Positions 23,534 through 56,077 are shown, numbered from the stretch's first letter. The stretch: DNA of 64,000 nt from an uncultured delta proteobacterium (GCA_963716725.1 CAVQUB010000005.1:96001-160000), one strand, 5' to 3'. The notes: generated from the sequence alone by a model not told the origin. Made by a program: numbers and translations.

Positions 23534-23594
23534 ACGGTAGCGGAGGCTGCGGGCGCGCGCCAGGCAGTCCTGGGCTCTCGAACGCGACCCCGGC

Positions 23595-37106: not shown

Positions 37107-40100
37107 TCAATCGGCGGCCATCGCTCGAAGCTCCTCGAGCCACGGCACCTTGGCGTCGAGCGACGACCACGCCTCGATGAGCGGCTTGGCGAGCGCCTTC
37201 GCCTTGGCCTTGTCACCTCGCTTCCAAGCTCGTCGGGCTTGCCGGAGGTCCTCCATCCCATGGCCCCGGACGTCCCGATTGACCCCGAGCGCGATGTTGC
37301 CCTGGTCGAGCTTCTGGGCGATCTCCGGCTCGCCAGCGGCCTCGAAGAGGTCGACCGGCAAGAGGGTGGCCATGGCTGTGTCCTGGAGGAGGGGTCGCCA
37401 CTGGCGCACGGCACCCTTGTGGTCTCCACTCGTCGCGAGGCTCGCGCCTCGCAGGTGCGTTTTGACCTCGGGAGTGAGCAGGGTGCTATCGAGATAGCGC
37501 TCCGCGAGTGCCTTCACGCACGCTCGCCCGTCGGACCGAGACGCCGCGAGGCAGACTTTGGTCCAGGCGGCCAATCCAATCGGCGGCGCGTCCGGTAGCG
37601 GGCCTTTCGAGACGCGAGAGGCCCACGTGTTTGCCACCTCGACCCCCCTCCCGATGACCGCAGCGATATTGACGGCTCTCAATGGGATGCGCCCGGCCCC
37701 CTCATTGCGTTCGAGCCTGTCGTCGAGCTTGTTCATGAACCGCATGGCAGCGTCTGTTGCTCTTGCCGGGAATCCGTCTGCACCGTCTGCGGCGATGAGG
37801 AGATAGGCGGATGCGTCGCGCGCCGCCTCGTCGCCCCCTGCGGCGAACACGGCGAGCGCGCGAGCCTCGGGAATGTGATCGAGCATGATCAATCGCCTCG
37901 CGAACTCGAGCATCCGGTCTTGGACCAACGGTGCGATCTCGTGCGCTCGGCGGGACCAGCGAAGGCTCAGTTCGACGTCCGACTCGCCCCAGTTTGCAGC
38001 AAACCACTCTCCGGCGTCGAAAGGGGCCCAGGCGTGCCCACTACGTCGCACGCTGTGGCGAGTGCGTTCAGTCGGAACGAAGCCGGAGGCAGAGAAGCCC
38101 AGCTGCCAGGCCGCCTCCCATGGGTGTTCACGCGCCGAGCGCGCGTAGAGGGGGAAGGCATCGGAAGGAACTCCGGTGTCCACCATGAGAAGCGTGGCTT
38201 CCGAGACGCGGAGGGCGACCTTCGCCTCCGGAAGGTCCTCATGTTCGGCTGCTGTGCGAAGCTCTCGCCCAAGCCCAGCTGCATCCTCGAGTTTCGCGCC
38301 CAACAAGAGGTGCGTCCCCGTGGAATAGGCTAGGCTCATTGGAGAGTTCCGCACCAACGCGAGATCTTTCGGAGCGGCGGCCCGGCCGATCGAAGCGCGA
38401 CAAAATGTCGTCACGTTCTCGCGCATCGTCGGATCCCACTCATCGTTCGCGAGAACGCGACGACAGCGCGGCGCATTCGCGAAGTCTTGGTTGATAGTAA
38501 ACGTGTCCAGATCCCAGCCAAGGTCTGGACTCGCAATCAACAAGGCGCGCCGGACCTCCGAGGTCGTCTTGGTGGCGACGGGGAATGCGCCCGCTTCCCC
38601 AAGGGTGTTCGATGCAACCCTTACGGCGTCGGCCAGATCTGGAGCGATTCCCACGCCTCGTCCCGCCTCCCTGCCGTCGGGTGCGAGGAGACGCAACTCG
38701 ACAGTGAAGTCCCTTCCGCTCGCCCTCACGCTTCCATCGAGCGTGGCTTGGGTGCGCTCCGCAGCAGCGGCCAGGCTCTTTGCGCGGAGCTCGGGCGGGG
38801 CATAAGGATCGTCCGGCACGTCCTCGGAGTAGCCGGGCGGAAAATCGAGCAGAGAGGCGGCGGAGACCACCCGCCGGCTGTCGCCCCCGAGGAGCCATTG
38901 CATGCGTCGGCAGGCGAGGCCCGACGTAGCTGCGCCGAGCCAGCCCACTGGTGCCGTAACGCCGCTCGCTTCGAATACTGCGCAACCGAGCTTGGACTGG
39001 GGGTCGGCGAGCATCTGGCCGACTGGCAAGCCTGCTGAGGCCGACGAAGATGGCGCAGCCACAGGTAGCGAAGGCGCGTGCGCTACCTTCCACACGCCCA
39101 TGCCCGCGACTCCGAGCGCCGCGATCAAGGCCCCCGCAATCCAGCGAGCACGTCCAGCTTGGGTCGAGGGTGCTCCCACTTCGGTCGCGCTGCGCGCCTC
39201 GATCATCCAACGATCAGGTCCGGTTTGGGTCGAGGGTGCTCCTCTTTCGGTCGCGCTGTGCGCGTCGATCTGGGGAGCAGGCACCAGCGCGGTGTCCGCC
39301 AGCCCGAGCGCCTCAGCGGCCTCTGGCTCCGAGCGCCGCTGTGCGCTCTCCCGCTGCGGGCGCCTCGCGACGGGGGTTCGCTTCGCCGCATGCAAGGCGA
39401 GCACATCGACGACGTCGCTCATGGTCGCGTGGCGCTGGTCGACCTCGGGCTCGAGCATTCGATCGATCAAGACGGCAACGTCCGGAGGAAGCTCGGGAGC
39501 CAGCTCCGCGACCGGGCGAACGTGACCCGAGCAGCACCATGACCACTTGCGCGAAGCTCTTGCCGCGCGTGGGCAATTCGCCGGTCACCATTTCGTACAG
39601 CATGAGTCCGAGAGACCACACGTCGGTGCGTGCATCCACCGGTCGCTCTGCGAGCGCCTGCTCCGGTGACATGTACATCGGCGTTCCCATCAGCGAGCCC
39701 GCGGCAGTCTCCGTGGACTGGTTCGGGAGCCCGCTTCCGACCTGCTTCACGATGCCGAAATCGAGCAACTTCACGTCTCCGTCCTTCGTCACGAAGGCGT
39801 TCGCTGGCTTGAGGTCGCGATGAACGATGCCGAGACCGTGTGCAATCTCGAGCGCCTCCGCGATGGGGAGTGTGAGCGCGGCCGCTGCCCCGACGTCGAG
39901 CTTGCCCTCGCGCGCAAGTCGGGCCTCGATGGACTCACCGACGAGAAGATCCATGACCAACACAGGCTCGCCGTCGTCACCCTCGATGACATCGTGCACG
40001 GGGACGACGGCTGGGTGATCGATGGCGCATGCAGCTCGCGCCTCCTTGATGACGCGACGACGCGCATCCTCGCTCAGTCCGCTCTTCAGAAACTTCAGCG

Positions 40101-40224
40101 CGACTTGGCGCTTCGTGAGCACATGCTCGCCGACCCACACCTGCCCCATGCCGCCCTCTGCGAGCATCCGGACCAAGCGGTACCGAGCGCCGATCGTCTC
40201 TCCTTCTTTCACCACGAAGGGCAT
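37107..40224 (-). CDS. Large membrane Ser/Thr kinase with helical extracytoplasmic domain; frameshift near 39527
   Basis: EGGMG, HRDLKPAN, DFG, GTPMYMSPE; ORFs join on removing one base from a CCC run. Confidence 0.85.
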
Positions 40225-40392
40225 TTGCGAGAAGCCTCGCAGAGTTGGACTTCGAAGTCTCGCGGAGGCCCGAATTCCGGCCGTGGCGGAGCCGAAACGT
40301 CCCACAATGTCTGATCTGTCGGCTTCGCGTAGCCGTTCTTCTTGAAGCAGCGCAGCGCGCGTTCCCCCCCAGTCCTGTCCGTTCAGCGCATG

Positions 40393-40531
40393 TCGCGGAT
40401 CCGGACGTTGTCACACGTGCGATCCGCGGAAGGGGGGTGGTGCGTTGGCGTCGTTCGACGCCAGCAGCATCGCGGTGAACGCGAACGCCAACGTTCGCAC
40501 CGTCTGCCCATGTCGCATCGTCCACCTCCCG
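40393..40531 (-). repeat. Diverged copy of 52489-52622 (RBS and signal-peptide 5' end of the peptidase/RCC1 gene)
   Basis: Direct alignment of 'cggacgttgtcac…gcgttggcgtcgttcga…cccatgtcgcatc.tccacctcccg'. Confidence 0.9.
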
Positions 40532-40562
40532 CGTGCCCGACGCCGTCTCGATCCGCGCCCCA

Positions 40563-40581
40563 CCCTACGACGTATAGCTAG
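40563..40581 (-). repeat. R1 left part: copy of the 4Fe-4S gene 3' end, split by IS630
   Basis: ccctacgacgtatagctag is identical to 52706-52724. Confidence 0.92.
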
Positions 40582-40609
40582 TACCTCGACGCAGAGGAGT
40601 TGACCGTTT

Positions 40610-41405
40610 TCATGCGGCGGTTCGAACGGCGCGCGGCCGTACGACCGAAGGGTGGGCTCGCCCGAGCTTCTCCCGGGCTCGCTCCAGCGTGAAAAGCCAC
40701 CTGATCCGTGCCTTCTCGCGATTGCGGCGCCGCTCCCACGCCTTGACCTCGGAGACCAGCATCGCTTTGGTCGGGATGCGCCGGTCCAGGCACTGCGACA
40801 CCATGACCCCGATCTCGATCTCGACCATGTTCAGCCAGCTCGCGTGCTTCGGCGTGTAGTGGAACTCAAGTCGACGGAGGATGCGACGCGCCTCGGCGGG
40901 CTCGAGGCTCTCATACAGTGCGGCGTGTGTGTGTGTCGACAGGTTGTCTATCACCACGCGGATCTGGTCCGCCTTCGGATAGTGGTCGTCGACGAGATCG
41001 CGCATGCACTCGGCGAAGTCGCGCGCGGCTCGACGATCGGTGACCTTCGCGCGACGCCACGAACGGTGTGCGTCGACGAACATGAAAACGTTCGCGGTGC
41101 CGTTGCGTACATATTCGTAGTCGAAGCGCGCTGGCCTGCCCGGCTTCGGGGCGACCGGCACACGAGACTCGCCGATGAGTTGTCGCGGCGTCTCGTCGAA
41201 GCAGACCACCGGGCGACTCTCGTCGGGCGCCTCGGCGTAGAGCTCGAGCACGTCTTCCATCCGTGCGACGAATTCGGCGTCGACTTTCGGAATGCACCAC
41301 ATCTTCTTCTGCCACGGTTTCAGCTCGTTTTCCGCGAGTCGGCGGCGGATCGTCTCCGACGAGAGCGACCTGTGCTTGGTCAGGCGCACCATCGCGCCGG
41401 CCAGC
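40610..41405 (-). pseudogene. IS630 transposase, C-terminal DDE part
   Basis: 'VVCFDETP', 'DYEYVRNGT', 'DNLSTH', 'HYTPKHASWLNMVEIE'. Confidence 0.92.
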
Positions 41406-41557
41406 TGTAGGCCGTCACCCTCCGTCGTGATCCCCCGCGGTCGTGGTGTCGGTCTGGGCGCTCGTTGTTTCGGGTGAGCCGGGTTCGGACTCCGGAGAGC
41501 TTCGCCGTTCTTTTTTCCTGAGAGGCTGATCCGCGGAAAGCTGATCGCCGGAGAAGG

Positions 41558-42235
41558 TTGGTCCGTCGCGGTAGCACCCGCACGGACCCGGCCAGCGAAG
41601 GATTGGTTGTCCGTTACGAGACGACCCTCACCAGCGAGCGGTACGTTACCGAGCAGGCGTGGCGGGCCGCAAGTTTGGAGCGGTGCCCGCTGCACCCGGA
41701 GGGCGGCTGCGGTCTCGCGGGGCACGGGAGCTACGGTCGGGTCCGCCCCGTCGGCGTCCGCGTCGCCCGGTTCTGGTGCCCGCGGGCTCGGGTGACTATC
41801 AGCCTTTTGCCTGATTTTCTGGCTTCCCGACTGTCGGGCACGCTCGAGGAGGTCGAGCGGGCCGTCGAGGTGGCCGAGGGCGCCAAGAGTCTGGAGGCGG
41901 TCGCCGAGAAGGTGCGCCCCGCGATCGCAGCGGACGCGGTGACGCTTCCAAGCGCGCTGCGGTGGCTCCGGCGGCGGCGTGTTGCTGTCCACGCGGCGCT
42001 CGTGGCGGCAGTGACGCTGGTGCCGGCGCTCACGGGCTGCCCGGCGACGCTTGGCGCGGTGCGGCAACGACTCGGGGTGTCGGATGCGCTCGTGGCGCTG
42101 CGGTCGGCCGCGGCCATTCACCTGGCCGCCATGCCAGCGCCGGTCGGACTGCGGGCGCGAGGGCGAGCGCGGCAAGCATCGCGAGAGCCGACCCCACACG
42201 AAACGGGGCCGGACCCTCCTCGGCGGGACCGATAG
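41558..42235 (+). CDS. Transposon accessory protein with Cys/His motif (start uncertain)
   Basis: 'CPLH..CGLAGHGSYGR..RFWCP..TISLLPDFL'. Confidence 0.65.
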   Translation: MVRRGSTRTDPASEGLVVRYETTLTSERYVTEQAWRAASLERCPLHPEGGCGLAGHGSYGRVRPVGVRVARFWCPRARVTISLLPDFLASRLSGTLEEVERAVEVAEGAKSLEAVAEKVRPAIAADAVTLPSALRWLRRRRVAVHAALVAAVTLVPALTGCPATLGAVRQRLGVSDALVALRSAAAIHLAAMPAPVGLRARGRARQASREPTPHETGPDPPRRDR

Positions 42236-42286
42236 CGGGTTGGTGTGCCCGGGACGGACCCGGGCCGACACCGAAAGAGAACTCCG

Positions 42287-43690
42287 ATGAGGACACCGAC
42301 CCCCGAAAACGAACGCACGCTCGCTGACGCCGAGCGCAGAAAGCAGATCGCGCTGTTCCGTTATGGCGTGATCGCAGATCTGCTCCACCTCGAGCGCGGT
42401 GCGCGCGGCATGTACGCGAAGCTGCGCGAGAAGGCGGAGAAGGACTGGGAGATCCCCGGAACGCTCCGGCGGAAGGTCCAGGCCGAAACGATCCGCGGAT
42501 GGCTTGCGGACTACCGACGCGGCGGCTTCGACGCCCTTGTCCCGAAGATCCGACGGGACGAGGGCTCGGCTCGCGCCATTCCCCGGGAGATCGCGGATCT
42601 GCTCTGCGAGACGAAAGAGCAGCACGCGGACTTCAGCGTCGGACTCGTCATCGCGCACGTGACGCGCTTCGCGAAGATCCCGGAGGGGGTCACGCTTGCG
42701 CCATCGACGGTGCACCGGATCTTGTCTCGGGCCGGACTCATGCAGAAGAAGCAGGGCGAGCCGACGGCGAAGGACCGCCGACGCTTCGCCTTCGAGAAGG
42801 CGGGCGAACTGTGGATGAGCGACGTGATGCACGGCCCCGCCGTCGCCGTGTCCGGGCGGCAGCGGAAGACGTACCTGCTCGCCGTCATCGACGACGCGAC
42901 ACGGATGGTGCCGTATGCGGCCTTCGCGCTCAGCGAGAACGCCGCGACCCTTCTCAGCGTGCTCGAGCAAGGGATCTGCCGCCGCGGGATCCCCAAGCGG
43001 CTTTACGTCGACAACGGTGCCGCCTTCAAAGCACAGCACCTGGCGCTCGTGTGCGCGAAGCTCGGCATCACCTTGATCCACGCGCGTCCCTACACGCCCC
43101 AGGGAAAAGGAAAGATGGAGCGGTGGTTTCGGACCGTGCGTCTTCAGCTCCTGCCGACGCTCCAGCCCGAGGACAGGCGGAGTCTCGAAGCACTCAACCG
43201 CCGTCTCTGGGCGTGGGTCGAGGGTGAGTATCATCGGAGTCCCCACCGCGGACTCGACGGTGAGACGCCCGCGGATCGCTGGGCGATGCGCTCAGACGAG
43301 GTGCGCCAGTCGTCGAGCGACCTCGCCGATCTGTTTCTCTTCGAGCAGAAGCGCCGTGTGCAGGCCGACCGCACCGTGTCGCTCGACAGCGTGGCCTACG
43401 AAGTGGACGCGATGCTCGTCGGCGAGACCGTCGTCCTTCGCTTCGATCCGGCGCGTCCGCGAGAGACACGTGCCGTCCAGGTCTGGCATCGCGGAAAGCA
43501 GATCCAGATCGCTCGCCGTGTCGACGTCTACGCCAACTGTTTCGTCCGACGCGATCACACGACGAAGGCCCTGCATCCATCTCAGCCCGTGGACGAGCCG
43601 CCCCCCGGCATGCGCTTGAGCGACTTCGACTTCGATGTCGGGGACAACCAGCAGGGCGGCGCTGGCGACGACGAGGGGGACCTCCTCTGA
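42287..43690 (+). CDS. DDE integrase-core (rve) / Mu-like transposase
   Basis: 'LWMSDVMHGP', 'IDDATR', 'YVDNGAAF', 'PYTPQGKGKMERWF'. Confidence 0.92.
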   Translation: MRTPTPENERTLADAERRKQIALFRYGVIADLLHLERGARGMYAKLREKAEKDWEIPGTLRRKVQAETIRGWLADYRRGGFDALVPKIRRDEGSARAIPREIADLLCETKEQHADFSVGLVIAHVTRFAKIPEGVTLAPSTVHRILSRAGLMQKKQGEPTAKDRRRFAFEKAGELWMSDVMHGPAVAVSGRQRKTYLLAVIDDATRMVPYAAFALSENAATLLSVLEQGICRRGIPKRLYVDNGAAFKAQHLALVCAKLGITLIHARPYTPQGKGKMERWFRTVRLQLLPTLQPEDRRSLEALNRRLWAWVEGEYHRSPHRGLDGETPADRWAMRSDEVRQSSSDLADLFLFEQKRRVQADRTVSLDSVAYEVDAMLVGETVVLRFDPARPRETRAVQVWHRGKQIQIARRVDVYANCFVRRDHTTKALHPSQPVDEPPPGMRLSDFDFDVGDNQQGGAGDDEGDLL

Positions 43691-44487
43691 TGTACCGCAA
43701 GCACTTCGGCCTCACCCGCCACCCCTTCGCCAAAAACATCGAGCCCGACGAGCTCTTCGCCTCCGGTGCGCTCCGAGAACTCGACGCCCGGCTCGCCCAT
43801 CTCCTCGACTTGCGCGGCATCGGTGTGGTCACCGGTGAGAGCGGCAGCGGCAAGACCACCGCGTGTCGGAAGATCGTCGCCGGTCTCCACACGGGTCTGC
43901 ACCGCGTCCTCTACGTGTCGCTCACCACCGGCAACGTGATGGATCTCTACAAGACCATCGCCTGGGAGATCGGCCTACCCACCGAGCGCAACCGCGCCGC
44001 ACTGTTCCGGCAGATCCGGACCGAGGTGACGCGGCTCTGCAGCGAGGCCCGGCAGAAACCGATCCTGATCGTGGACGAAGCTCATCACCTCAGGAGCGAC
44101 GTGCTCGAGGACCTGCGCCTGCTCACCAACTACGCGATGGACTCCGACAACCGCCTCTGCCTGGTCCTCGTCGGACACCCGGAACTGCGCCGCCGCCTCG
44201 GCATGGCGGTGCACGAGGCGCTCTCGCAGCGCGTCGTCGTGCGCGCTCACGTCCCGGGTCTTGCCCGTGACGAGCTCGGCCCGTACCTCACGCACCTGCT
44301 CCGACTCGCCGGAACCGAGCTCGAACTCTTCGAGCCCGCAACCCAGGAGGCGATCTTCCAGGCGTCGAACGGCCTGCCCCGGAAGGTGAACCTGCTCGCT
44401 CACCACGCGCTCATGGCCGCCGCGCTCACCAAGAGCAGGACCGTCACGACCGAGCACATCCAGTCCGCCATGGCCGAAGTCACCTGA
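43690..44487 (+). CDS. ExeA-like AAA ATPase (transposition helper)
   Basis: 'MYRKHFGLTRHPF', Walker A GESGSGKT, Walker B 'LIVDEAH'; TGATG coupling to the transposase. Confidence 0.92.
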   Translation: MYRKHFGLTRHPFAKNIEPDELFASGALRELDARLAHLLDLRGIGVVTGESGSGKTTACRKIVAGLHTGLHRVLYVSLTTGNVMDLYKTIAWEIGLPTERNRAALFRQIRTEVTRLCSEARQKPILIVDEAHHLRSDVLEDLRLLTNYAMDSDNRLCLVLVGHPELRRRLGMAVHEALSQRVVVRAHVPGLARDELGPYLTHLLRLAGTELELFEPATQEAIFQASNGLPRKVNLLAHHALMAAALTKSRTVTTEHIQSAMAEVT

Positions 44488-44663
44488 GCCCAGCGCCCGG
44501 CGACGGTCCACAAGGCCCGGCGGAGATCCACGTCTCCGTCGGGCCGCTCCCTTTCTGCCACCACCTCGCCACGCCCACTCGACCACCGCACTCCGGGAAA
44601 CCACCCCGAGGGCATCACGAAAATGCCCGGGATTCGGGCGGGGGAAGAGCGTGGGAAACTACA

Positions 44664-45013
44664 GCCAGCAACGAGAGCGTCCAGCGCGCTCGCCCAGCCG
44701 GCGGCTCCGAGCACGCCGTCGCGATCAGCAACGCTTCCTCCTTCGCCGCGAGCTTGCGCTCGGCGCCGGGTCGAGGTTCCTCGCTGAGCGCCGCCTCCAG
44801 GCCCTCTTCGGCGAAGCGCCGCTTGGTTCGATAGACCGTTGACGTGCCAACGCTGACGTTTGCGGCGATGGTCGCGTCGCCAGAGCCGCCTGCAGCTGCC
44901 AGCAGGATCTGAGCTCGCTTCAGTCTGCGAACGCGCTCCTTGCCGGCCTGGATCATGCCCCGAAGCAGTTCGCGCTCCTCCGACGTCAACGTGATGCGGT
45001 ACCGTATGTTCAT
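44664..45013 (-). pseudogene. IS630 transposase, N-terminal HTH part
   Basis: 'RAQILLAA…TVYRTKRRF…ACSEPPAGRARWTLSLLA'. Confidence 0.9.
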
Positions 45014-45051
45014 GGTGGTTCCTGCAGCCCATTGATCATGAGAGTGCTCTC

Positions 45052-45339
45052 TTGTCGATCCCCCCCTCCAAGTCGCGGTTCACGGAAAAGCAGGGCCAGT
45101 ACCTTGCCTTCATCCACACCTACGGCTTGCTCAACCGCCGCTCGCCGGCCGAGGCCGACATGGAGAACTACTTCGGAGTGACGGCCCCGTCCGTCCATCG
45201 CATGGTCGTCGAACTGGAGCGGCGCGGACTGATCCGTCGGGTGCCGCGGCAGCCCCGAAGCATCGAGGTCTGCTTACCTGCCGCGGAAATTCCGGCGCTA
45301 CGCTCGCAATCGATCGAATCCTCTGCGTCGAGGTACTAG
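45052..45339 (+). CDS. LexA-like winged-helix DNA-binding protein (IS passenger)
   Basis: 'FTEKQGQYLAFI..Y..PAEADM..YFGVTAPSVHRMVVELERRGLI.R.P..PRSI'; no peptidase domain. Confidence 0.75.
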   Translation: MSIPPSKSRFTEKQGQYLAFIHTYGLLNRRSPAEADMENYFGVTAPSVHRMVVELERRGLIRRVPRQPRSIEVCLPAAEIPALRSQSIESSASRY

Positions 45340-45389
45340 TGTTCTCGAGCAGGATCACGTTCGTCCTGCTGCGCGTCTCGCCGGCGCTC
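45336..45389 (-). repeat. R1 right part: copy of the 4Fe-4S gene 3' end
   Basis: Encodes SAGETRSRTNVILLENT with three synonymous changes relative to 52721-52774. Confidence 0.95.
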
Positions 45390-45603
45390 TGATGCTGCCC
45401 CCATCCGCGCGTCCTCGGCCGCTCCACCCCTTCGGGTATGCCCCTCCGGGCACTTTCAAGGATCGTCGCGAAGCGCGTTGCGGCCTGCGGCCGCTCGACT
45501 TCCCCCAAAGCCGTGCTCGCAGGCAGCGCGAGCGGCGCGGCCGTGAATTGCGCTGACTGACTCTTCGCGCTGCCTGCTGCGCGTGGCAGGGGGAAGTGGC
45601 GCG
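45390..45603. repeat. E1: conserved palindromic element
   Basis: tgatgctgcccccatccg…acttccccc(45498-45506)…gggggaagt(45589-45597); has an extra ~55-nt insert in the first hairpin. Confidence 0.9.
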
Positions 45604-45606
45604 CTC

Positions 45607-46178
45607 GCGTCCGGTGATGTTGTCGCTGGATCGATGCGTTGTCTCAACGGCTCGGCGGCGGAACCTCAGCGTCTGGGGGCGAGTGCCCACTTGATCGGCT
45701 TCGAGACCGTCGGCTTCGAACACGCCCTCCACCTCGTCCGTGCAGTTCGTCCGGTTGCTGCCGGCACCCAACGGCGCATGGTTGGTCTCCCGCTACGCAG
45801 GCACCACGTCTTCGGAGCAGCCGCCCATCATGTTGCTTCGTCTCGACGCAGGTGGCGCGCCCCTGGGGGCTCCAGCGCCCGTCGCGCACAATTCGTTCTA
45901 CGGCCTGCCGGGGTTGGCGAGCCTTGGGGAACGCGTCGCAGTCGCCGTAACCGATCCCAACGATCCCCTCGGCACGACCTTCGAGATCCGCATTGTCAAC
46001 GCGGCGCACCACCTTGCATCAACGCAACTATCAACCGAGCAACACCTTCGCCGAACCCCGCCTCAGCCTGATGCCATCGCCGGACCAGGACCAGTTGCTA
46101 CTCGGTTGGTCGTCGCCGGCGCCCGGCAACAGCGTATTGGCGGCGCGCGTCGCAAGGTTTTGCGTGCCGGGACCTTAG
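45607..46178 (+). pseudogene. Frameshifted 3' fragment of an exported beta-rich protein gene
   Basis: Coding-like segments in successive frames ending 'VARFCVPGP*'; no start before E1. Confidence 0.45.
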
Positions 46179-46199
46179 GGGCCTCCCCTCGCCTCGTCC

Positions 46200-46814
46200 T
46201 CAGGCCGACGAGCCAAGGTTCAGCTGAGCCAGTGCTTCTAGGACCAACGTGCGCCTTGATGCCGCTTTGATTCGGGCGGCCATCTTTCGGGCAAGTGCGA
46301 AACTGAAGCCGCGGGGGAACTCAAGCTCCGGCAACGCGCGAAACTTTCGCGACCGAGCGGGCCGGAGGTAGAGAAAGTCCACCAGCGCTTTCTCCGCCAC
46401 AGCCACCTTCGCGCCCAAACGTGGGTCCGTGTCAAAACCGAAAAAGAAGTGCGGCGCCAGTGTGTGAAACGAGACAGCCGCTATTGGCGTCTTCACGCGG
46501 CGCGACGGGCCCAGGGTCGCGGCGTAGACGATCGCGGGGATCTGCTCGATCAATCCGTGATGATGGAGCGCCGACTGGAATGACACATAGCTTGGAGTGG
46601 GTGCGCTGAGTCGTTCAGGCACGGCGAACGCGTGCAAGCGGTCCCGAAACGCCCACCGGCCTCTGTGTAGACGAACCAAATGTCCGGCTTCGGCAAGACG
46701 TCGAAGAACGACCGACACTTGCTTCGGCGGGCGAGCAAGGCAGGCCGCCGCGTCGCTCGTGGAAAACGCGGGACTCAGCCTTTCGAGCAGCCGCAGCGCT
46801 TCAATAGAGGTCAC
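46200..46814 (-). CDS. abiEi: Type IV TA antitoxin, AbiEi family
   Basis: N-terminal wHTH; 'YVSFQSALHHHGLIEQIP', 'AEKALVDFLY'; GTGA coupling. Confidence 0.85.
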   Translation of the reverse strand: MTSIEALRLLERLSPAFSTSDAAACLARPPKQVSVVLRRLAEAGHLVRLHRGRWAFRDRLHAFAVPERLSAPTPSYVSFQSALHHHGLIEQIPAIVYAATLGPSRRVKTPIAAVSFHTLAPHFFFGFDTDPRLGAKVAVAEKALVDFLYLRPARSRKFRALPELEFPRGFSFALARKMAARIKAASRRTLVLEALAQLNLGSSA

Positions 46815-47566
46815 GTTGCAGGCCGCTCCAGTGCGGTGACGACGCGCAATACCAACTGATCCCATTCGGCCGAACTAGCCGGCACGTTTGGTTCGTCCTC
46901 CGGAAGAAATGCCCGCACTTGTCCGAGATAGTCATCGAAGCTCACCGTCATCGCATTTGCCACAGCTCCTTCGAAGTCCCCGCGACCGCTCTCAGAAACG
47001 TCCGGCGGCCACTGTCCCGCGCGGAGGAGCAAATCGAGATCAAATACGTCGCGCGCCTGGGTTTCGACACGGCGCGCGAGTGCTCGTGCTTTCTGCACGA
47101 ATGCGGTCGTCGACGTGTAGTGAGAAAGGAATACCGGGGCAAGGCTGTAGCGCCCGATGAGCATCGAGTCGACTGGATCGAACGACGTGCCTTGGTCGAC
47201 GCCGCGTCGGCTAAACTCGATCTTCGTGCGCAAGCTGGCCGCGGGCGCGCTGACGTCGAGTGCAATCTTCCAGCGCTGGGTGGTGTCGGTCTGTTTGGGG
47301 GTCGTGATCTGGCCCACCGTTAGCCCATGCGTCGCCAAGGCGAGGCGGAACGAGCGGGATCCCAAGAGGCGTGAGACCTTGTTTGTCAGCGTGCTCTTTT
47401 CGATGGTCTGGACATCGATATCCAAATCCTCGGAGTATCGGGGGCTCTTGAAAAAGAAGCGCAGGTTGCAGCCGCCCTTCACCGCGTACAGCTGCTTGTC
47501 GAGCTGTCGCCCAAGTTCGGCGAGGAAAACTAGATGAAAGCGCTCAACCGCCTGCCGATCTCGCAT
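46811..47566 (-). CDS. abiEii: Type IV TA toxin, AbiEii nucleotidyltransferase
   Basis: 'KGGCNLRFFFKSPRYSEDLD', 'KIEFS', 'QARDVFDL'. Confidence 0.88.
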   Translation of the reverse strand: MRDRQAVERFHLVFLAELGRQLDKQLYAVKGGCNLRFFFKSPRYSEDLDIDVQTIEKSTLTNKVSRLLGSRSFRLALATHGLTVGQITTPKQTDTTQRWKIALDVSAPAASLRTKIEFSRRGVDQGTSFDPVDSMLIGRYSLAPVFLSHYTSTTAFVQKARALARRVETQARDVFDLDLLLRAGQWPPDVSESGRGDFEGAVANAMTVSFDDYLGQVRAFLPEDEPNVPASSAEWDQLVLRVVTALERPAT

Positions 47567-47742
47567 TCCGCCATAATACAACGAATCAACACCCGAGTTG
47601 ATTCATACACTTATGGATCGTGCGATCCAGGATGACTCTAGCCAGCTTTGTGCAGTCTTTTCCGACACTTAACCTCCGTTGCGTCGCTGGCGGCGCGGGC
47701 ATATCGTTTGACGTAAAATGACATGCCCGCCAGGCTGGTTGA

Positions 47743-48036
47743 GTGATCCAGGGATTTTGCGATGCAGCTACCCAGGACATCCACGACGGCAGAACCACGA
47801 AACCGGCTAGAAACCGGCTCCCCGGCAGCCTGTGGCGGGTCGCAACGCGGAAGCTGGACCAACTGCATCGCGTGCTCGAACTGGCCGAGCTTCGGGTGCC
47901 GCCCGGTAACGACCTGGAGGCGTTGAAGGGGGACCGCGAGGGCCAGCACTCGATACGGATCAACGATCAGTACGGCATTTGCTTCGAATGGACCGGCGAC
48001 GGCCCGGATGCCGTCGAGATCGTCGACTACCACTGA
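47743..48036 (+). CDS. higB: HigB/RelE-like toxin
   Basis: 'LRVPPGNDLEALKGDREGQHSIRINDQYGICFEW…VEIVDYH'. Confidence 0.93.
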   Translation: MIQGFCDAATQDIHDGRTTKPARNRLPGSLWRVATRKLDQLHRVLELAELRVPPGNDLEALKGDREGQHSIRINDQYGICFEWTGDGPDAVEIVDYH

Positions 48037-48058
48037 GCCGAACCAGCTGAGAAACATC

Positions 48059-48385
48059 ATGACCAGAGAAAAGAAAAGCGGAGTCGGTCTTCCCACCCTT
48101 CGTCCACCGACGTCGCCGGGTGAGATGCTGCGTGAAGAGTTCCTCGTGCCGCTTCAACTCACCCAGAGCGAACTGGCCGAGCGCATGGGTGTGCCGGTGG
48201 GGCGTGTGAATCAGATCCTACAAGAGAAGCGCGCCGTGACCGCGGATACCGCGGTGCGCTTGAGCCGGGTGCTCGGCATGAGCGCGGAGTTTTGGCTCGG
48301 ACTCCAGACAGATTGGGATCTCTGGCGCGCCCGGCGTGAAGTGAATTTGAAGGCACTGAAGCCCATCCCCGTCAAGGCCGGATAG
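48059..48385 (+). CDS. higA: HigA antitoxin
   Basis: 'PGEMLREEFL..QSELAERM…TADTAVRL…AEFWLGLQ'. Confidence 0.93.
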   Translation: MTREKKSGVGLPTLRPPTSPGEMLREEFLVPLQLTQSELAERMGVPVGRVNQILQEKRAVTADTAVRLSRVLGMSAEFWLGLQTDWDLWRARREVNLKALKPIPVKAG

Positions 48386-48405
48386 CGAAGAGTGTGGCGT
48401 TCCCC

Positions 48406-48459
48406 CCCTACGACGTATAGCTGGTGTTCTCGAGCAGGATCACGTTCGTCCTGCTGCGG
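48406..48459 (-). repeat. R2: copy of the 4Fe-4S gene 3' end (15 bp shorter)
   Basis: Encodes RSRTNVILLENTSYTS* with three synonymous changes. Confidence 0.95.
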
Positions 48460-48619
48460 TGATGCTGCCCCCATCCGCGCGTCCTCGGCCGCTCTGCGGC
48501 CTCCGGCCGCTCGACTTCCCCCAAAGCCGTGCTCGCAGGCCGCGCGCGCGGCGCGGCGATGAACCGCGCTGCTCGACTCTTCGCGCTGCCTGCTGCGCGC
48601 GGCCGGGGGAAGTGGCGCG
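48460..48619. repeat. E2: conserved palindromic element
   Basis: Same 5' motif; stem acttccccc(48514-48522)/gggggaagt(48605-48613); similarity to E3 continues to 48663. Confidence 0.92.
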
Positions 48620-48702
48620 TCCCGCGTCCCGCCGGCTGCTGCTCTCGTCACCGCTCCGGCGGCAGAGCCATCGGGGCGGAGGGCCGGCACCGTGTGACTC
48701 GT

Positions 48703-49368
48703 TCATTCCTTGCTCGTGAGCTTCAGCATGCCGTTTTCGGCGAGCTCTTTCCGGGCCGCCTCGAACTTCCCCCAGTCGGCGCGGAGCACGATTCGGGCCT
48801 GGTGAGCCGGCGCCTCGGCGGTGGTGTCGCCCAGCGCGTCGCGTAGGATCACGATCACCGAATCGCCCGGCCGGACGCCGCCTCCCGCGAGGCCCTCGAC
48901 CCACCATCTCGAGCCCGGTGAGTGCCCAGCATCAGCGGTGGAGACTTGCCGTTCCACGCGCACCCGGTACTTCGGGTGCTTGCGCGGTTGAGCCACCACG
49001 CGCTCCACGACCGCGCGCACGATGACTGACGACAAGTGAATGTCGAAGTGCATGGCCAACCGTTGCCTCAGCTTTTCGACGAAAGCCGATGAGGCATCGA
49101 TGAGCGCGGGGTCGTCCACGCGCGAACCCTCGCCTTTCAGCCAGATGTGAAAGACCCGCGAGTGGGAGCAGCGGTCAGGTGCCGGGCAGGTGTCGTGCTC
49201 GACCTGGGTCGTGCGAAACTCGGCGCGGATACGCTGGAGCTCCGCGATTTCTCCGCGATCGAGTCGCGCGACGACGGCGGGGAACTCGGGGTAAGTGGCG
49301 GCCGAAATCAGGGCACGGCCATCGCGCATGACGATGGTTCGGTAGGGAGGAACGCCATAGCGAAGCAT
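48703..49368 (-). CDS. Hypothetical protein
   Basis: TGATG overlap with the upstream ORF; could be one frameshifted gene with it. Confidence 0.5.
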   Translation of the reverse strand: MLRYGVPPYRTIVMRDGRALISAATYPEFPAVVARLDRGEIAELQRIRAEFRTTQVEHDTCPAPDRCSHSRVFHIWLKGEGSRVDDPALIDASSAFVEKLRQRLAMHFDIHLSSVIVRAVVERVVAQPRKHPKYRVRVERQVSTADAGHSPGSRWWVEGLAGGGVRPGDSVIVILRDALGDTTAEAPAHQARIVLRADWGKFEAARKELAENGMLKLTSKE

Positions 49369-49883
49369 CACGGCGTCCCGTGCTGCGAGCACCTGCCCTC
49401 GCTGCTCCAATTCGAGGCGCTGCCAATGACCCAGGGCCCAGAGCCACAGTCCTCGGTCGAGCCGGCGAGGCGCGTCTTCGCGGGATACCAGGAACTCCAG
49501 TCGAGTGCGAAATCGAGCGGCGGCTCCCCATCCGAGAACAGGAGTTCGTCGACGTCGATGCCGACTCGTTGGCAGCCCGAGCAGAAGTGGGAGCGCCCGT
49601 CGTCGCTCTTCAGCTCCGCGGAGCCGATGACTGCGACCCAGCTGGCCAGCGTGAGCACCTCGACGGGCGGGCGCCGCGAGGGGGTGGCCATGGGAAGGCA
49701 GCCGTAGAACGCTCCCGGAGGTAACTCGGGTTGGCGCAGAGGAGGCGGTGCCGGTGCTGCGTTCGCAAGCGCAGGGGGCTCATCAGGGGGCTCATCAGGC
49801 GGCGCTTCGCAGGCCGGTGAGCCGGTGCACAGGATTGCCCAGGCGACCACCAGGCTGGTCCGGATGCCGGCCGTACCCGCCAT
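49368..49883 (-). CDS. Hypothetical exported protein
   Basis: Hydrophobic N-terminus, Pro-rich linker, Cys-containing domain. Confidence 0.5.
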   Translation of the reverse strand: MAGTAGIRTSLVVAWAILCTGSPACEAPPDEPPDEPPALANAAPAPPPLRQPELPPGAFYGCLPMATPSRRPPVEVLTLASWVAVIGSAELKSDDGRSHFCSGCQRVGIDVDELLFSDGEPPLDFALDWSSWYPAKTRLAGSTEDCGSGPWVIGSASNWSSEGRCSQHGTP

Positions 49884-50096
49884 CTCGGCTGAAGCTTAGC
49901 GCGCCGCGCGGCTCCGTGCTGCCGCGGCCGATTCAGAACCCCGAGCCCGGCTGCTTCAGGAGCTCGAGTCTCTCGGCCGTCGAGGCGCGGCCGAGCGTCG
50001 CGTCCCGGTGCGGGAAGCGACCGACCCCTGGAGAAACGCCGAGGGGCGAGCGAAATACGATCGCAGCGTGCGCGACGCCGTCTCGAGCCACGCCCT

Positions 50097-50165
50097 CCCT
50101 ACGACGTATAGCTAGTGTTCTCGAGCAGGATCACGTTGGTCCGACTGCGGGTCTCGCCGGCGCTC
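50097..50165 (-). repeat. R3: copy of the 4Fe-4S gene 3' end
   Basis: 69 bp with one synonymous mismatch to 52706-52774. Confidence 0.97.
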
Positions 50166-50325
50166 TGATGCTGCCCCCATCCGCGCGTCCTCGGCCGCTC
50201 TGCGGCCTCCGGGCGCTCGACTTCCCCCAAAGCCGTGCTCGCAGGCAGCGCGAGCGGCGCGGCGATGAACCGCGTTGCTCGACTCCTCGCGCGGCCTGCT
50301 GCGCGCGGCAGGGGGAAGTGCGCGT
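50166..50325. repeat. E3: conserved palindromic element
   Basis: Stem acttccccc(50220-50228)/gggggaagt(50311-50319) with nested stems. Confidence 0.92.
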
Positions 50326-50352
50326 CACGCGTGGCGCCGGCCTCTGCTCTCG

Positions 50353-52612
50353 TCACCGCGCCGGCGGCGTCGACTCGCCGTAGGTGTTGCTGCCCCAGCA
50401 CGCGATCGAGTGGTCGGCCCGGAGCGCGCAGGCGTGGCCGAACCCGACGTCCATTTGAACGAAGCGCCCCGCGGGCGGACGGATCAGCTCTTCGTTCTGG
50501 ACGCCGACGCAAGTGAGGGTACCGTCGAGCTCGATGACGCAGGCGTTGTACCGCCCGCCGGCATGCACGGAGCGGGCGAGGCGGCCGTGGAGGTTGCCGA
50601 AGGATTCCTCGAACCCCCAACACGCGACGACGTTGTCGATGTTGCGGGCGCAGGAGAAATGGCTGCCGCTGGTGATCTGGACGAAGGTGCCGGCCGGGGG
50701 ATTGGCCTGGCCGTTGTAGTTTGCCCCCCAGCACGCGAGCGTGCCGTCGGCGCGGATGGCGCAGGCGTGCATACCGCCCACGGCCACGTCCTGGAACTTG
50801 CCCGGGGGTGGGTCGTCCAGTCCATGGCCCTGGTTGCCCCAGCACGCGAGCGTCCCGTCGAGGCGGACGGCGCAGGCTGTCATCCCCAACGTCGAAACCG
50901 TCGAGTAGTGGCCGGGCGGAAACGCGCCGACGGAGTTCATCTGGGCGGTCGGCCAGCAGCTCAAGGTGCCGTCCCGCTCGAGGCCGCACGCCCGCAACGA
51001 AACATCAGGGTAGCCGGGCGTCAGTTGAGCCGTATCCTCGTTCAGGTAGCTGCCAGCCCAGAACGAGAACGCCGCGTGGGTGCCAAGGTCCTGGTAGCCG
51101 GGGTGCGGCGGGCTGTTGGCGGGGTCGCTCAGCCACTCCTGCTGCATGTCGTTCATGGCCGCCATCGCGAAGCAATCCGAGAGGCCCTCGTAGATCGCCT
51201 TCTCCTCCGTCTTGTCGGCGGGGCGTGGCAAAACGTCTTCCCACAGCGAGTGCCCGAGCTCGTGCGCCAGGACCATCGGATCGGCTGAGGTCTTGAAGCG
51301 CTCGCCGCCAACGCCGACCTGGATGACGCCGTTGTCCGTCCCGAGGGACGTGTTCAGCCTGGTGAACCAGGCCTGCTCCGCGTACCCCCGCTGCCACCCG
51401 ACGTAGCGCACCGGGATGTTGCTGCCCACCCGCTTCGTGTAGCCGTTCTTCTTGAAGTAGCGCAGCGCGCGCTCCCCCCAGTATTGCCCGTTCACCGCGT
51501 GTCGGATCAGGGGGTCGTTGCTGATCCAGGAGTTGTCGGCGTCGCGGAACACGTCAGCCTGATCGAACTTCGGATCGACCAGCGGGCTGTCGCGGAACGT
51601 CACGACATCCTGCGAGCCCACGAGGCGGTCCGGTGTGCCCCACTCGTTGCACGACACCAGGGCCCAGGGGTTCTGCTCTTTCGGGTAGTAGGTCGTCGAG
51701 AATCGGCGGAGGCCCAGATCGGTGTCCAGCCCTTCGCCCTCGTTGTAGAGGCAGAGCCAGAGTGGGATGAGCGCGTTCTGAAACGCCGCTTGCCCCGCGG
51801 TGATGGCCTTCCCGATGGGCTTGGTGGAGCCTGACGACGAGTGCGACGCCAGCTGGATGATCCGACTGATCTGGCCCGACGCGGCATCGACCCACACGTC
51901 CGCGACTTGCTGGGCGACCACGTCGTCGCTCGTGAGGCGCACGGCGTACACGAGCTGATCGTTCCCGCGACGCACCTCGGTGGCTCTGCGGGCGCCGCCG
52001 AACATCGCGGGCTCGCGCACCACCAGGAACGGCGGCGGATACTCGCGGGCGGTGAGCGGGATCGACGAAAGCTCTGGCGCCACCTCGAGCGCGCGCGCCA
52101 CCGCCTCGTCGGGTGCGATCTCTTCCTCGGGTGGCGCGAGATCGGGTTGCGCGGTGCTCACGATCGAGGCGATGGAGATCCCGTCGCCCGCGATGTTCAG
52201 CGCAATGCGCGCGCCGCGCACGAGCGCACCGCGGTGGCGTTGTTCCAGCGCGACGACGCGCCAGTTCGCTTCTCCGGGCAACGCTTCGAGCGTATCGACG
52301 TCGGGCGTGAGCCCGAGCAATGTCAAGACCGCGGGCGACGTCGCCAGATCGATCACGCGCGCTCTTCGCTCGGCGTAAACGCGCCGCGCAATCGCCGCCG
52401 GCATCGGACGCTCACGTGCGCTCGCGAGCCAGAACTTCGCGGTGCGGCTCAGCCCCGGGATCGGGAACGTCCGCTCCCACTCGATGATGCGGACGTTGTC
52501 ACCCGTGCGATCTGCAGGGGGGGGGGGGCAAAGCGTTGGCGTCGTTCGAGGCCAGCAGCATCGCGGTGAGCGCGAACGCCAACGTTCGTACCGTCTGCCC
52601 ATGTCGCATCAT
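50353..52612 (-). CDS. Secreted M4/M36-like zinc metallopeptidase with C-terminal RCC1-like repeats; signal peptide out of frame at a G12 tract
   Basis: 'LAHELGH' with downstream 'YEGLSD'; repeats 'HACAIRADGTLACWG'; signal MRHGQTVRTLAFALTAMLLASNDANA is in frame only with G11 or G14. Confidence 0.75.
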
Positions 52613-52705
52613 CCACCTCCCGAGGGCAACGGTACGCGGCGCGATCGGTCCGCGCAATGTGCGCGTTGTCGCACGATGTGGGCCCGCGCGTTCCGAGCGC
52701 GACCA

Positions 52706-52774
52706 CCCTACGACGTATAGCTAGTGTTCTCGAGCAGGATCACGTTCGTCCGACTGCGGGTCTCGCCGGCGCTC
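52706..52774 (-). repeat. R4: native 3' end of the 4Fe-4S gene (putative attachment site)
   Basis: In-frame end …VT-SAGETRSRTNVILLENTSYTS*. Confidence 0.95.
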
Positions 52775-54730
52775 GTCACGTAGACGGCGGGCTTGTCGAC
52801 GATCGGGCAGACCTTCTCGCAGGCGCCGCAGCCGATGCACAGCGAAGGATCGACGTGCGGGCGTTGCACCTTGATGGTGGTCATCTTGGCGTGACCGCCG
52901 CCCTCCTCGTAGTGCGCCTCGCGCTTCGGGACCTCGACGTCTTCGGCCCAGATCGCCTTGGGTGAGGTCGGGCAGAACTCTTCGCAGACGATGCAGGGCG
53001 TGGCCATGGCCCAGGGCAGGCAGCGCCCTTGGTCGTACATGGCGGTCCCGATGCTGATGGGCTTCTGACCGATGCCCATCTTCTGCTTCTCGTCGATCTT
53101 CTGGATGGCGCCGGTCGGACAGACCTGGCCGCAGAGCACGCAGCTGAACTCGCAGTAGCCGATGCGCGGGATCAGGATCGGCGTCCACAGTCCCTCGAGC
53201 CCGGCCTCGAAGAACGCGGGGTGCAGCGCGTTGTTCGGGCAGACCTTCATGCACTCGGCGCAGCGGATGCAGCGCTCGAGGAAGTCGCGCTCGTCCACCG
53301 AACCCGGCGGACGGATCACCTTCTCGCTGTAGGCCCGGTCGGGCCAGTTGGCGATGCGCATCGCGGGGATGGCCACCGCGCCGGCGGCGGTCGAGGCCAG
53401 GATCGTGCGTCGCTGCAGGTCCGGCTTGACGAGCTCGCTCTTGCGGTTCGGCAGGAACTTGAACTTGATGACGTCTTCGGGGCAGGCGGCCTCGCAGTTG
53501 AAGCACATGAGGCACTCGTCTTGCTGGTGCTTGACGCCGCCTTGCGGGCTGTCGGCGCCTTGGCAGTGCACCAGGCACAGGTTGCAGTCGGTGCACTTCG
53601 AGTGGTCCTTCTCCATGCCGAAGATGGCGAAGCGCGAGAGCACGCCCAAGAACGAGCCGAGCGGGACACAGCGCCCGGCACCAGAAGCGCGGCATGATGC
53701 GGTTCATGAACAAGATCGCGACCAGCGCGAAGACGATGAACCAGGTCTGGTGGAAGTAGGCCTGGTTCGCGGTCCAGACGGTCTGGGCGAAGAAGTCCTG
53801 GGTCGCGTCGCTGGCCGTCTGCACGGCGCGCAGGTTGCTGTCGGCGGCGACGGTGGCGCCGCGGATGCCCAGGTATTGCAGCGCGGGCACGACTCCCAGG
53901 CCGATGGCACGGACCGCGATGCAGATGGGATCGAGCAGCCCACCGATGGCGCTGCCCGCCGCCGCCGCGCCGAGGAAGCCCCACATCAGGTAGAACTTGC
54001 CGCGCTGCCAGCCCTTGGTCTTGTTGGAGTCGACGCGCTTGCTGCCCTTGAGATAGCGACTCGGGAAGATCCAGCCGAAAAAGTGATGCAGGGTGCCGAA
54101 GGGGCAGATCCAACCGCAGAACACGCGACCGAAGAGCAGCGTCAGCGCGACGATCACCAGCGACCACGCCAGGCCGCGGTAGACGGAGTGGGTGGAGAGG
54201 AGCGTCATCGCGGCGACGAAGGGATCCGCCATCAGGAAGGCTTCGACTGGGAGCGGCATCCGGATCGCTTTGTCCGCGCCGGCGGCGAAGCTGCCGCGGA
54301 AGGCCGTCGCGAACAGGAACCAGAAGAAGACGCCGAGGAAGACGATCTGCGAGACGACCCGCGCCTTGGCGAGGAATCGAATCACGCCGCGGGCGGGGAT
54401 GCCCGAGCCCGGCAGCTTGCGCGGGCCGAAGCGGCGCTTCATCCAGCGCCGGAAGCGCGACGGGGGCGGGAGCTTCTTCGGAGCGGGCGGGGAGCCGGCG
54501 CTCGAGCCCCCGGCCGAGCCGTTGCCTGCGCTCGTGGCGGGCGTCGTCGAGTCCGTCGCCGCGCTGGCGTTCACCGCGGACGAGCAGCCACCGCCCTGGG
54601 AACCGCAACCACACTGCTTCGGTGCCGCCGGCGCGGGCACCGCATCGAGCGGCGCTACCTTCCCAGGAGCCCCCAGCCACGGGATCGGGCGGGGCAGATC
54701 GGGCGTTCCGGAGTGGGTGGGTGGGTGCAC
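52708..54730 (-). CDS. Membrane polyferredoxin (NapH/MauN-like + NapG/MauM-like 4Fe-4S); frameshift near 53664
   Basis: 'GRVFCGWICPFG', 'FWCRALCP', multiple CxxCxxCxxxCP; an extra base in a GGG run breaks CPLGSFLG. Confidence 0.88.
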
Positions 54731-55723: not shown

Positions 55724-55873
55724 GGCTCACGTAACGTCAAATTTGGCGCCGCGGAAGATAACGTAACGTAATGACTTTTCTGATTTCAGGCCTTCCAGCT
55801 TGCTCGCCCCGGGAGCCCTCCCGTGCTGGAGCTTGAACGTCGGCGGCTCTGGCGCTAGGGTCCGCGCCCCGCC

Positions 55874-56077
55874 ATGAAAGCCGGCATCCACCCCGAGTAC
55901 AACGTCCTCTCCGTGACCTGCGCCTGCGGGAACACGTTCCAGACCCGATCGACCGCGAAGGAGATGGCCGTCGACGTCTGCGGCGCCTGCCACCCGTTTT
56001 ACACGGGCAAGCAGCGCCTGATGGACACCCAGGGCCGCGTCGATCGTTTCCGCAAGCGGTACGCGAAGACGGCGTGA
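55874..56077 (+). CDS. rpmE: 50S ribosomal protein L31
   Basis: '[13 protein letters not shown]…[18 protein letters not shown]'. Confidence 0.98.

Follow-up and report, generated by a model that had tools for sequence, protein, structure and literature searches.

We describe an array of repeated gene ends in a 64,000-nucleotide stretch of DNA from an uncultured delta proteobacterium (G000:C5:96001-160000; hereafter the window, in which positions are counted from its first letter), where copies of the 3' end of one gene alternate with cargo genes and with a structured element that we call E. The source bin, G000, comprises 7.9 Mb at 68% GC on 35 contigs, cited below as C1, C5 and so on. The array lies behind a minus-strand operon that runs from a DUF362 gene (54731-55723) through a NapH-like gene (about 53650-54730) to a NapG-like 4Fe-4S ferredoxin gene (52708-53649; Pfam Fer4 families, with NCBIfam NapG/MauM below cut-off). 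This last gene of the operon, with its TAG stop codon at 52708-52710, is the anchor of the array, and about 70 nt of its 3' end, the gene-end repeat R, occur in four direct copies, R4 to R1.

In gene orientation, the order is gene-R4, RCC1 gene-E3-R3, open reading frames (ORFs)-E2-R2, and HigBA/AbiEi/AbiEii/ORFs-E1-R1, with every R and E copy on the minus strand. R4 (52700-52774), the gene end in current use, consists of the last 22 codons, the stop and about 8 nt beyond. Behind it stands cargo 3, a gene for a secreted RCC1-repeat protein (50353-52602, minus strand; Pfam RCC1_2, PepSY weak), followed by E3 (50166-50320; covariance model match of 71 bits), which ends in ...GGATGGGGGCAGCATCA, and by the displaced gene end R3 (50091-50165), identical to R4 at 72 of 75 nt. 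Cargo 2 (48615-50090), whose ORFs have no Pfam or NCBIfam match in domain searches, leads to E2 (48460-48614; 61 bits) and to R2 (48400-48459), a displaced gene end lacking its first 15 nt. Cargo 1 holds a HigB-like toxin and a HigA antitoxin (47743-48385, plus strand; Pfam HigB-like_toxin and HTH_3, TIGR02607 HigA above cut-off), an AbiEi-like antitoxin with an AbiEii nucleotidyltransferase toxin (46200-47581, minus strand; Pfam AbiEi_4 and AbiEii) and, next to these, ORFs of no assigned family. It is closed by E1 (45390-45598; 49.8 bits), which contains a 54-nt REP-like insert (45425-45478), and by the oldest gene end, R1, split into a 5' part (45336-45389) and a 3' part (40558-40577) by an IS630-family element (40578-45335; 39-nt inverted ends; DDE_3, HTH, rve and AAA_22 domains) that sits at a CTAG within it.

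E thus lies directly 5' of R3, R2 and R1, and its three copies are 92-95% identical (E2/E3 148/155, E1/E3 144/156, E1/E2 145/156). The R1 and R3 junctions fall at one base, where the native GTGAC|GAGCGCC has become E-CATCA|GAGCGCC. Differences among the R copies are synonymous in the ferredoxin frame or lie past the stop codon (scripted for R2-R4, by eye for R1), and because the copies show only synonymous differences, each of them was probably functional as a gene end at one time. Four sequencing runs, each from a different study, yield Logan contigs that match the unique cargo with 0-2 differences and, being short and broken at the repeats, reveal no circles; neither a tRNA or tmRNA nor a match to the Phage_integrase, Resolvase or Recombinase domains was found in the window. 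A first, sequence-only reading of the window had placed the four gene-end repeats at these coordinates, fused each displaced copy to the same E, put the R1 and R3 junctions at an identical base and reported no tyrosine or serine recombinase, all of which held when the junctions were re-read and the domains searched. Its picture of units made of a new gene end, cargo and E, newest nearest the gene and carrying no recombinase, is one that we share.

The architecture is not peculiar to the ferredoxin gene. For each of 16 E copies in G000, the 400 nt that follow E were sought on the same strand within 30 kb upstream, and at 12 of them a repeat was found that begins 1-5 nt past the end of the covariance model, lies 0.5-17 kb upstream and is 40-344 nt long. 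Of 300 random positions, a repeat of this kind was present at 15 and began within 5 nt at four, so chance is excluded as the source of the agreement at E ends. The arrays of two congeners, G002 and G003, obey the same rule at 14 of 17 E copies. Over all anchors, repeat lengths run from 40 to more than 400 nt, and R copies always outnumber E copies by one. Apart from the ferredoxin gene with its three cassettes, G000 has anchors in ftsZ (C1) and in an L,D-transpeptidase gene (C12) and a TPR-like gene (C13), besides sites on C34 and C5 and an RHS core end (C10). Two cassettes stand behind the L,D-transpeptidase gene, where R measures 193-212 nt and one pair is 100% identical; the R at the RHS core end, of 185 nt, is a classic displaced tip. 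Dissociated gene-end fragments stand behind an intact gene in the window and on C10, C12, C13, C34 and C1. The tail of E meets unrelated sequence at each anchor, with no shared motif or microhomology visible.

The ftsZ locus offers an empty site for comparison. In G002, ftsZ, its terminator and a DUF2079 gene follow one another uninterrupted; in G000, the order is ftsZ, terminator, 4.3 kb of cargo, E, a second copy of the last ~66 nt of ftsZ with the terminator, and then DUF2079. As the ftsZ cargo has only E in common with the next downstream unit, it is an insertion, not a tandem duplication. The sequence-only reading had envisaged additions at one fixed site, and this part of it has to be given up, since the same architecture occurs at no fewer than six other G000 anchors and in congener arrays of up to five units. 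It had also raised the possibility that other genes carry E-abutted duplicated ends and that a nuclease or recombinase accompanies E: the duplicated ends are there at the 12 copies above and a nuclease family, DUF559, co-occurs; a recombinase partner was not found.

Two larger clusters were recorded alongside these loci. A five-E array in G003 (C6:152097-172376; L156, L157), on a contig that ends inside the array, contains four units of ~3.2 kb with a common start of >1.1 kb and a common end of ~700 nt, the middle differing in one unit. On C13 of G000 (81235-88625), three E copies (82063, 85819, 86126), two DUF559 genes, IS91 fragments and overlapping repeats form a cluster more tangled than a simple gene-R-cargo-E-R scheme.

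BLAST places further copies of E on G000 contigs C10 and C1 and in congeners. In a wider survey, an invariant 18-mer of E was scanned in one genome per species, giving 101 stretches of which 80 were fetched; these hold 44 distinct true E copies, all in Polyangiaceae, Polyangiales or Myxococcota bins. The remaining 18-mer matches were set aside as chance matches within coding DNA of other phyla. Covariance searches, limited to scoring 150 first-look candidates in each genome and therefore giving lower bounds, yielded at least 16 matches in G000, at least 19 in G002, at least 11 in G005 and at least 15 in G003. E is 74 to about 210 nt long and is built of a closing helix and one or two variable hairpins within conserved internal-loop motifs, with a sharp 3' terminus (...GGGGCA plus about 6 nt). 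RNAalifold predicted 23 pairs from 27 aligned copies, eight of them with double compensatory changes; for example, pair 3:104 is GC in 14 copies and AU in 10, pair 4:103 UA in 13 and CG in 13, and pair 110:143 GC in 15 and CG in 9. In the same alignment, read by eye, the G-run of the E tail varies in length in step with the C-run of the closing helix. By this comparative evidence, E is structurally constrained. Rfam 15 has no match at E<=1 in window positions 38000-56000, and in 10 E-bearing loci it returned tRNAs and weak unrelated matches, nothing for E. Guide-like complementarity between E and the 80 nt round the junction at seven anchors was no better than random, and only C34 reached 0.05. 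Among the papers listed, those naming DUF559 (titles and abstract starts) or Polyangiaceae intergenic repeats contained nothing on such cassettes, and no wider search on the novelty of E was made.

E can itself be interrupted. A group II intron lies within one G000 copy, after GGCTTTGGGG (C1:284130-286541, L002; reverse transcriptase at C1:284560-286227), and L075, from another bin, has a group II intron at the identical insertion point. A class of group II introns targets hairpins. In one 130-nt subfamily of E, a divergent YhgA/Rpn-like (Transposase_31) nuclease gene replaces DUF559 (L038:1894-3039, L046:2023-3105).

The association with DUF559, a family that Pfam groups with Vsr-like PD-(D/E)XK nucleases, is visible within G000: of its 10 DUF559 matches, six have one of the 16 E copies no further than ~400 nt away. 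Divergent [DUF559<-|->E] modules account for four of these (C34, C13, C5, C10), one abuts an E end and one follows the fresh gene end on C12; the sister units that carry DUF559 are found at C13:81460-81771, C12:70723-70935, C34, C5:377211 and C10. In the smallest cassette, on C13, the 485-nt cargo consists in essence of the 5' two-thirds of an antisense DUF559 gene and is followed by a 74-nt E. Across metagenome-assembled genomes, nine of 45 E loci have a DUF559 homolog no more than 2 kb from E, versus none of 31 loci without E, a weak control drawn from other phyla. The E-linked proteins are free-standing and 110-150 aa long, and DUF559 protein matches PDB entry 3HRL, an 'endonuclease-like protein' (E = 3e-10). 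An inverted partner of E beyond DUF559 gave weak matches only (<=15 bits), and E is one-sided here. Taken together, the genomic context makes the E-linked DUF559 family, not an integrase, the likely driver of these insertions.

We therefore consider, at about an even chance, that the array arose by C-terminal displacement, three cassettes having been stacked by break repair or a single crossover, and that these cassettes derive from a DUF559/hairpin family but lack its nuclease. Each cassette would consist of a copy of the anchor's last ~20 codons (R'), cargo and E; on insertion, R' would be joined to the gene body, and the prior gene end would shift downstream to abut E. E would be the structured end, as RNA or single-stranded DNA, of a small mobile cassette family of Polyangiaceae (a mode of action that we only infer), whose autonomous form would carry the divergent DUF559 nuclease gene; the three window cassettes would have lost that gene or never had one. 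If the anchor were broken or nicked close to the junction point, repair could draw on a donor allele with [R'-cargo-E-R]; equivalently, a circular [R-cargo-E] could cross over once within R. Either route would add a unit and leave the gene intact. The restored gene|R' junction could then be hit again, whereas an old E|R junction, without the left half of the target, would be inert and stay put; re-targeting of the gene|R' junction would thus yield stacking with the newest unit proximal, and the synonymous R differences are consistent with gene ends once used by separate lineages. More tentatively, and at clearly less than even confidence, E and DUF559 may together constitute a recombinase-free cassette-capture system, through which arbitrary gene sets enter conserved gene 3' ends, that of ftsZ included, by bringing a spare end, stack, use many anchors, rely on break repair and spread among Polyangiaceae. 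In outcome, such a system would resemble integrons.

Several observations weigh against this interpretation. No DUF559 gene or remnant was detected in the window (tblastn at E<=1; Pfam, NCBIfam), no DUF559 lies near 10 of the 16 G000 copies of E or at 36 of the 45 metagenome loci, and DUF559 genes ~85% identical in nucleotide sequence (alignment by eye) occur at different anchors, where a homing nuclease would be expected to be target-specific. DUF559 is a candidate for the nuclease that would start the event, its activity and target being putative. Domain searches of the window cassettes with Pfam and NCBIfam matched no other nuclease. The R2 junction (CATCA|CCGCAG) lies 15 nt further 3' than that of R1 and R3; this offset, the similar nucleases at different anchors and the origin of the first E|gene junction are left unexplained by the model. 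G000 is a metagenome bin (completeness 84%, contamination 3.9%), and the Logan contigs stop at the E/R repeats, none covering the whole array. Furthermore, homology extends past R and E among cassettes 3 and 2 and the R1 flank.

The position of many E copies is a further difficulty. About 16 of 53 listed E copies, in many Polyangiaceae bins, meet with their 3' end the 3' end of a tRNA-Ser gene on the opposite strand (anticodons GGA, CGA or GCT; L059, L061, L064, L065, L084, L090, L097, L106 and others); with ARAGORN, 13 of 15 loci picked for their tRNA-like look had a tRNA-Ser. In L098, L108, L062, L085 and L049, two convergent E-like elements enclose an 18-30-nt tRNA 3' fragment, and at other loci E adjoins the stop codon of a convergent gene. 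Copying of gene ends alone does not explain this antisense tRNA-Ser and convergent-gene geometry.

The locus in relatives also fails to provide a series of states. The ferredoxin ortholog is present in five of five congeners at 92-96% amino acid identity, with a single gene end and no E downstream, and E is likewise absent downstream of the ortholog at all 80 metagenome loci, 45 of which have at least 2.5 kb of downstream sequence; one locus, L233, has an E upstream of the ortholog. There is hence no population series at the ferredoxin anchor, and the variation in cassette number that the sequence-only reading would have led one to look for in relatives was not seen. None of the five congeners has nucleotide similarity to window positions 30000-52707, and synteny with G001 and G003 resumes only at ~19580, so ~33 kb behind the gene are lineage-specific. 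The syntenic repeat-protein gene (window ~17800-19580) lies 2.7 and 6.9 kb behind the operon in G001 and G003, respectively.

Among rival explanations, the one that survives best, itself unlikely, holds that islands with tyrosine or large serine recombinases entered the gene 3' end serially and lost their integrases, leaving remnants like cis-mobilizable elements (CIMEs), with E as an attP arm. The E copies at tRNA-Ser 3' ends, some beside the 18-30-nt tRNA fragments, would be a classic integrase footprint. Moreover, G002 has an E-ended element of 11.3 kb (C2:3027861-3039216; L033:6861-18216), flanked by 54-nt copies of the end of an IgGFc-binding gene, in which a large serine recombinase of 703 aa is encoded about 1 kb upstream of E; this element counts against a recombinase-free reading as well as for this rival. 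The survey of recombinases argues against it. PF00589 has 19 matches in G000, none on C5, and those sharing a contig with an E copy, on C1 and C10 only, each lie at least 55 kb from E. Serine recombinases (PF07508, PF00239) have no match in the G000 assembly, 84% complete, nor has the G002 enzyme a homolog there. No integrase or resolvase is encoded by any of the 109 ORFs found up to 2 kb from E at 45 loci; the genes flanking E are of housekeeping type, along with a few toxin genes, IS91 fragments and two Rpn-like genes. Furthermore, anchors that are unrelated at the junction and repeats of such varied length misfit a single att specificity, and compensatory base changes in E would be unexpected for protein-binding arm sites. 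The same searches dispose of the integron-like character proposed in the sequence-only reading, as there is no intI, no tyrosine recombinase on C5 and none within 2 kb of E at the 45 loci.

The G002 element also holds IS91 fragments and duplicated pieces of an MFS gene; the IgGFc-binding gene in the window (21611-23686) is without E. Other candidate owners or partners of E were tried and rejected. For IS91, the four strongest full-profile Y2_Tnp matches (of 14 in G000) have no E within 9 kb, and of the four weakest (29-33 bits), two have an E copy about 1.2 kb away. TnpB-omegaRNA as a source of E was dismissed with PF07282 lacking a match in G000, and a Y1 enzyme as partner with neither of the two Y1_Tnp matches in G000 adjoining E.

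A second rival, quite unlikely in our estimate, is tandem duplication of [gene end - downstream gene - E] with later deletions or replacements, in which E merely marks the downstream limit. It draws on the homology past R and E noted above. The deleted remnant of a paralog or allele of the RCC1-protein gene behind R1 (40322-40536, minus strand) consists of a signal-peptide start followed by a piece matching 51432-51479, and is ~90% identical to the start of cargo 3, to the spacer upstream of it and to the R4 flank (repeats D5, D12 and D13; BLAST). In addition, ~30 nt 3' of R3 resemble the R1 flank, E2 is preceded by 50 nt with homology to the RCC1 gene end (its last 15 nt) and the hairpin behind it (repeat D11), and three of the four G003 C6 units are 91-94% identical over their full length. 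This homology suggests that in situ duplication or allelic exchange is partly mixed in, and some of the window cargo looks like an allelic copy of the native downstream gene, not foreign DNA. Duplication as the whole explanation is opposed by the single-E loci, whose two R copies are impossible from duplication of a unit ending in E; by cargos 1 and 2, unrelated to cargo 3; by the ftsZ cargo, which shares nothing except E with its neighbour and has an empty site in a congener; and by a novel junction at the same few E bases in many independent genes. With its unrelated cargos and its one extra R, the array is not one plain tandem duplication, in keeping with the sequence-only reading.

Very unlikely is a third rival, in which transcripts have E as their 3' terminus. 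Reverse transcription of [cargo-E] would continue, after a template switch, on the 3' end of the anchor mRNA, and the resulting [R-cargo-E] cDNA would circularise and recombine at R. The E 3' terminus is sharp and fixed while the 5' limits of R and of the cargo vary, the duplicated R at ftsZ stops exactly at the end of the terminator hairpin, near the mRNA 3' end, and group II intron reverse transcriptases are present, one of them within an E copy. Against this, no reverse transcriptase is linked to E except in two or three intron insertions, for which hairpin targeting would account alone, and R has no evident terminator at its end in the window or at the C12 and C13 loci. The least probable rival, in which E is a terminator-like or regulatory RNA with no role in mobility and recombination between gene ends alone builds the arrays, takes support from the many E copies just past stop codons or tRNA ends with housekeeping neighbours, from the group II intron site at a hairpin and TTT inside E, and from an rhs model that requires no special element (PMC2935791), and founders on the displaced copies 1-5 nt past E at 12 of 16 ends versus four of 300 controls, on the E terminus being set against internal points of seven genes, which recombination within R alone would not achieve, and on the link of E to DUF559.

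Other features of the locus touch the array less directly. The IS630-family element within R1 contains an IS21-type element, delimited by a step in Logan depth (about 41406-44663; istA/istB 42245-44487), which shows about eightfold depth over its surroundings in four runs and is thus multi-copy. Near-identical copies of the REP-like 54-nt insert of E1 occur on C2, C8, C9, C12 and C13 and elsewhere on C5, and a Y1_Tnp (RAYT/IS200-like) gene lies 5.5 kb past the window (G000:C5:165574-165909). Coding repeats comprise a 66-nt tandem repeat (39139-39270) in the ORF at 37107-39470 and 111-nt units (50360-50886) in the RCC1 gene. Between 19580 and 52707, the window also holds several Ser/Thr kinase genes, an FGE-sulfatase gene and PEGA/TPR genes.

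If displacement by E-ended cassettes is the correct reading, it would give some members of the very large DUF559 family a role and add an undescribed family of structured elements in myxobacteria. It would also mean that defence and toxin-antitoxin genes are lodged harmlessly behind essential genes and hence are hard to lose, and it would supply the displaced-tip model of rhs loci with its missing junction mark and a possible trigger. The new features are a conserved structured terminal element without a known family, cargo units that lack a nuclease, and arrays behind housekeeping genes.

Finally, we consider known systems that resemble these arrays. Integrons and clusters of attC sites lacking integron integrases (CALINs) are promoter-poor cassette arrays in which each cassette ends in a folded recombination site and the newest lies nearest the anchor. 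The arrays described here differ in having no IntI and no attI, in taking a coding sequence as anchor and in starting each cassette with a copy of that anchor; the conserved motifs of E are presumably unlike the attC boxes, which follow an R''-L''...L'-R' pattern on a folded bottom strand. Accretion of CIMEs and integrative and conjugative elements (ICEs), and tycheposons, likewise involve gene-end att-like copies that flank integrase-less units, and need a tyrosine recombinase of fixed specificity, whereas no tyrosine recombinase is linked to E and no conserved att core runs across its anchors. Repetitive extragenic palindromic (REP) sequences and REPINs, with their RAYT, are short structured repeats at gene ends with one small nuclease partner (Y1 HUH). 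The partner of E would instead be a PD-(D/E)XK Vsr-like protein, and E, at 74-210 nt and with two domains, bounds cargo with duplicated gene ends.

Among nucleases, the Vsr-fold (EDxHD) enzyme I-Bth0305I is a homing endonuclease encoded in a group I intron (Taylor et al. 2011; PMC3239194). Its fold family is related to DUF559 and is used for homing into conserved genes; compared by description, it differs in a large N-terminal DNA-binding region from the 110-150-aa free-standing proteins found near E.

In our comparison, the closest known cases are two, the endonuclease gene hybrids of fungal mitochondria and the displacement of rhs tips, neither of them named in the sequence-only reading. In the fungal case, mobile endonuclease ORFs (mORFs) have entered atp6 of Allomyces macrogynus and atp6, atp9, cox2 and nad3 of Glomus sp. 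(Beaudet et al. 2013; PMC3630166). The hybrid reads gene core, foreign C-terminal, mobile element and native C*-terminal, the two C-terminals differing largely synonymously, and entry is thought to proceed by endonuclease cleavage and repair from the donor allele (PMC3630166). The window and ftsZ cassettes, the latter read against the empty site in G002, share this order, with the inserted C-terminal upstream and the native one downstream. The fungal insertions are single and bring no cargo besides a LAGLIDADG or GIY-YIG gene; here, units stack up to three to five deep, carry toxin-antitoxin and Abi cargo, include a Vsr-like nuclease in some cases and end in E. An endonuclease within the inserted unit, as in the fungi, is found in the sister units and not in the window cassettes.

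In rhs loci, an intact gene is followed by dissociated fragments, each a piece of the conserved end with differing downstream genes, and Jackson et al. (2009) proposed that a circle of a core piece and a new tip enters by a single crossover, shunting the old tip downstream (PMC2935791). The anchors here, such as ferredoxin, ftsZ and L,D-transpeptidase, differ from rhs genes in not being polymorphic toxins, and their R copies encode the same peptide; a polymorphic-toxin anchor with variable tips was found only at the RHS locus on C10. A structured E before every displaced piece and an E-linked nuclease family likewise have no rhs counterpart. The likeness lies in the order of events: the newest unit adjoins the gene in both systems, with R4 followed by R3, R2 and R1 in the window, and one G000 cassette ending in E sits on an RHS core end itself.

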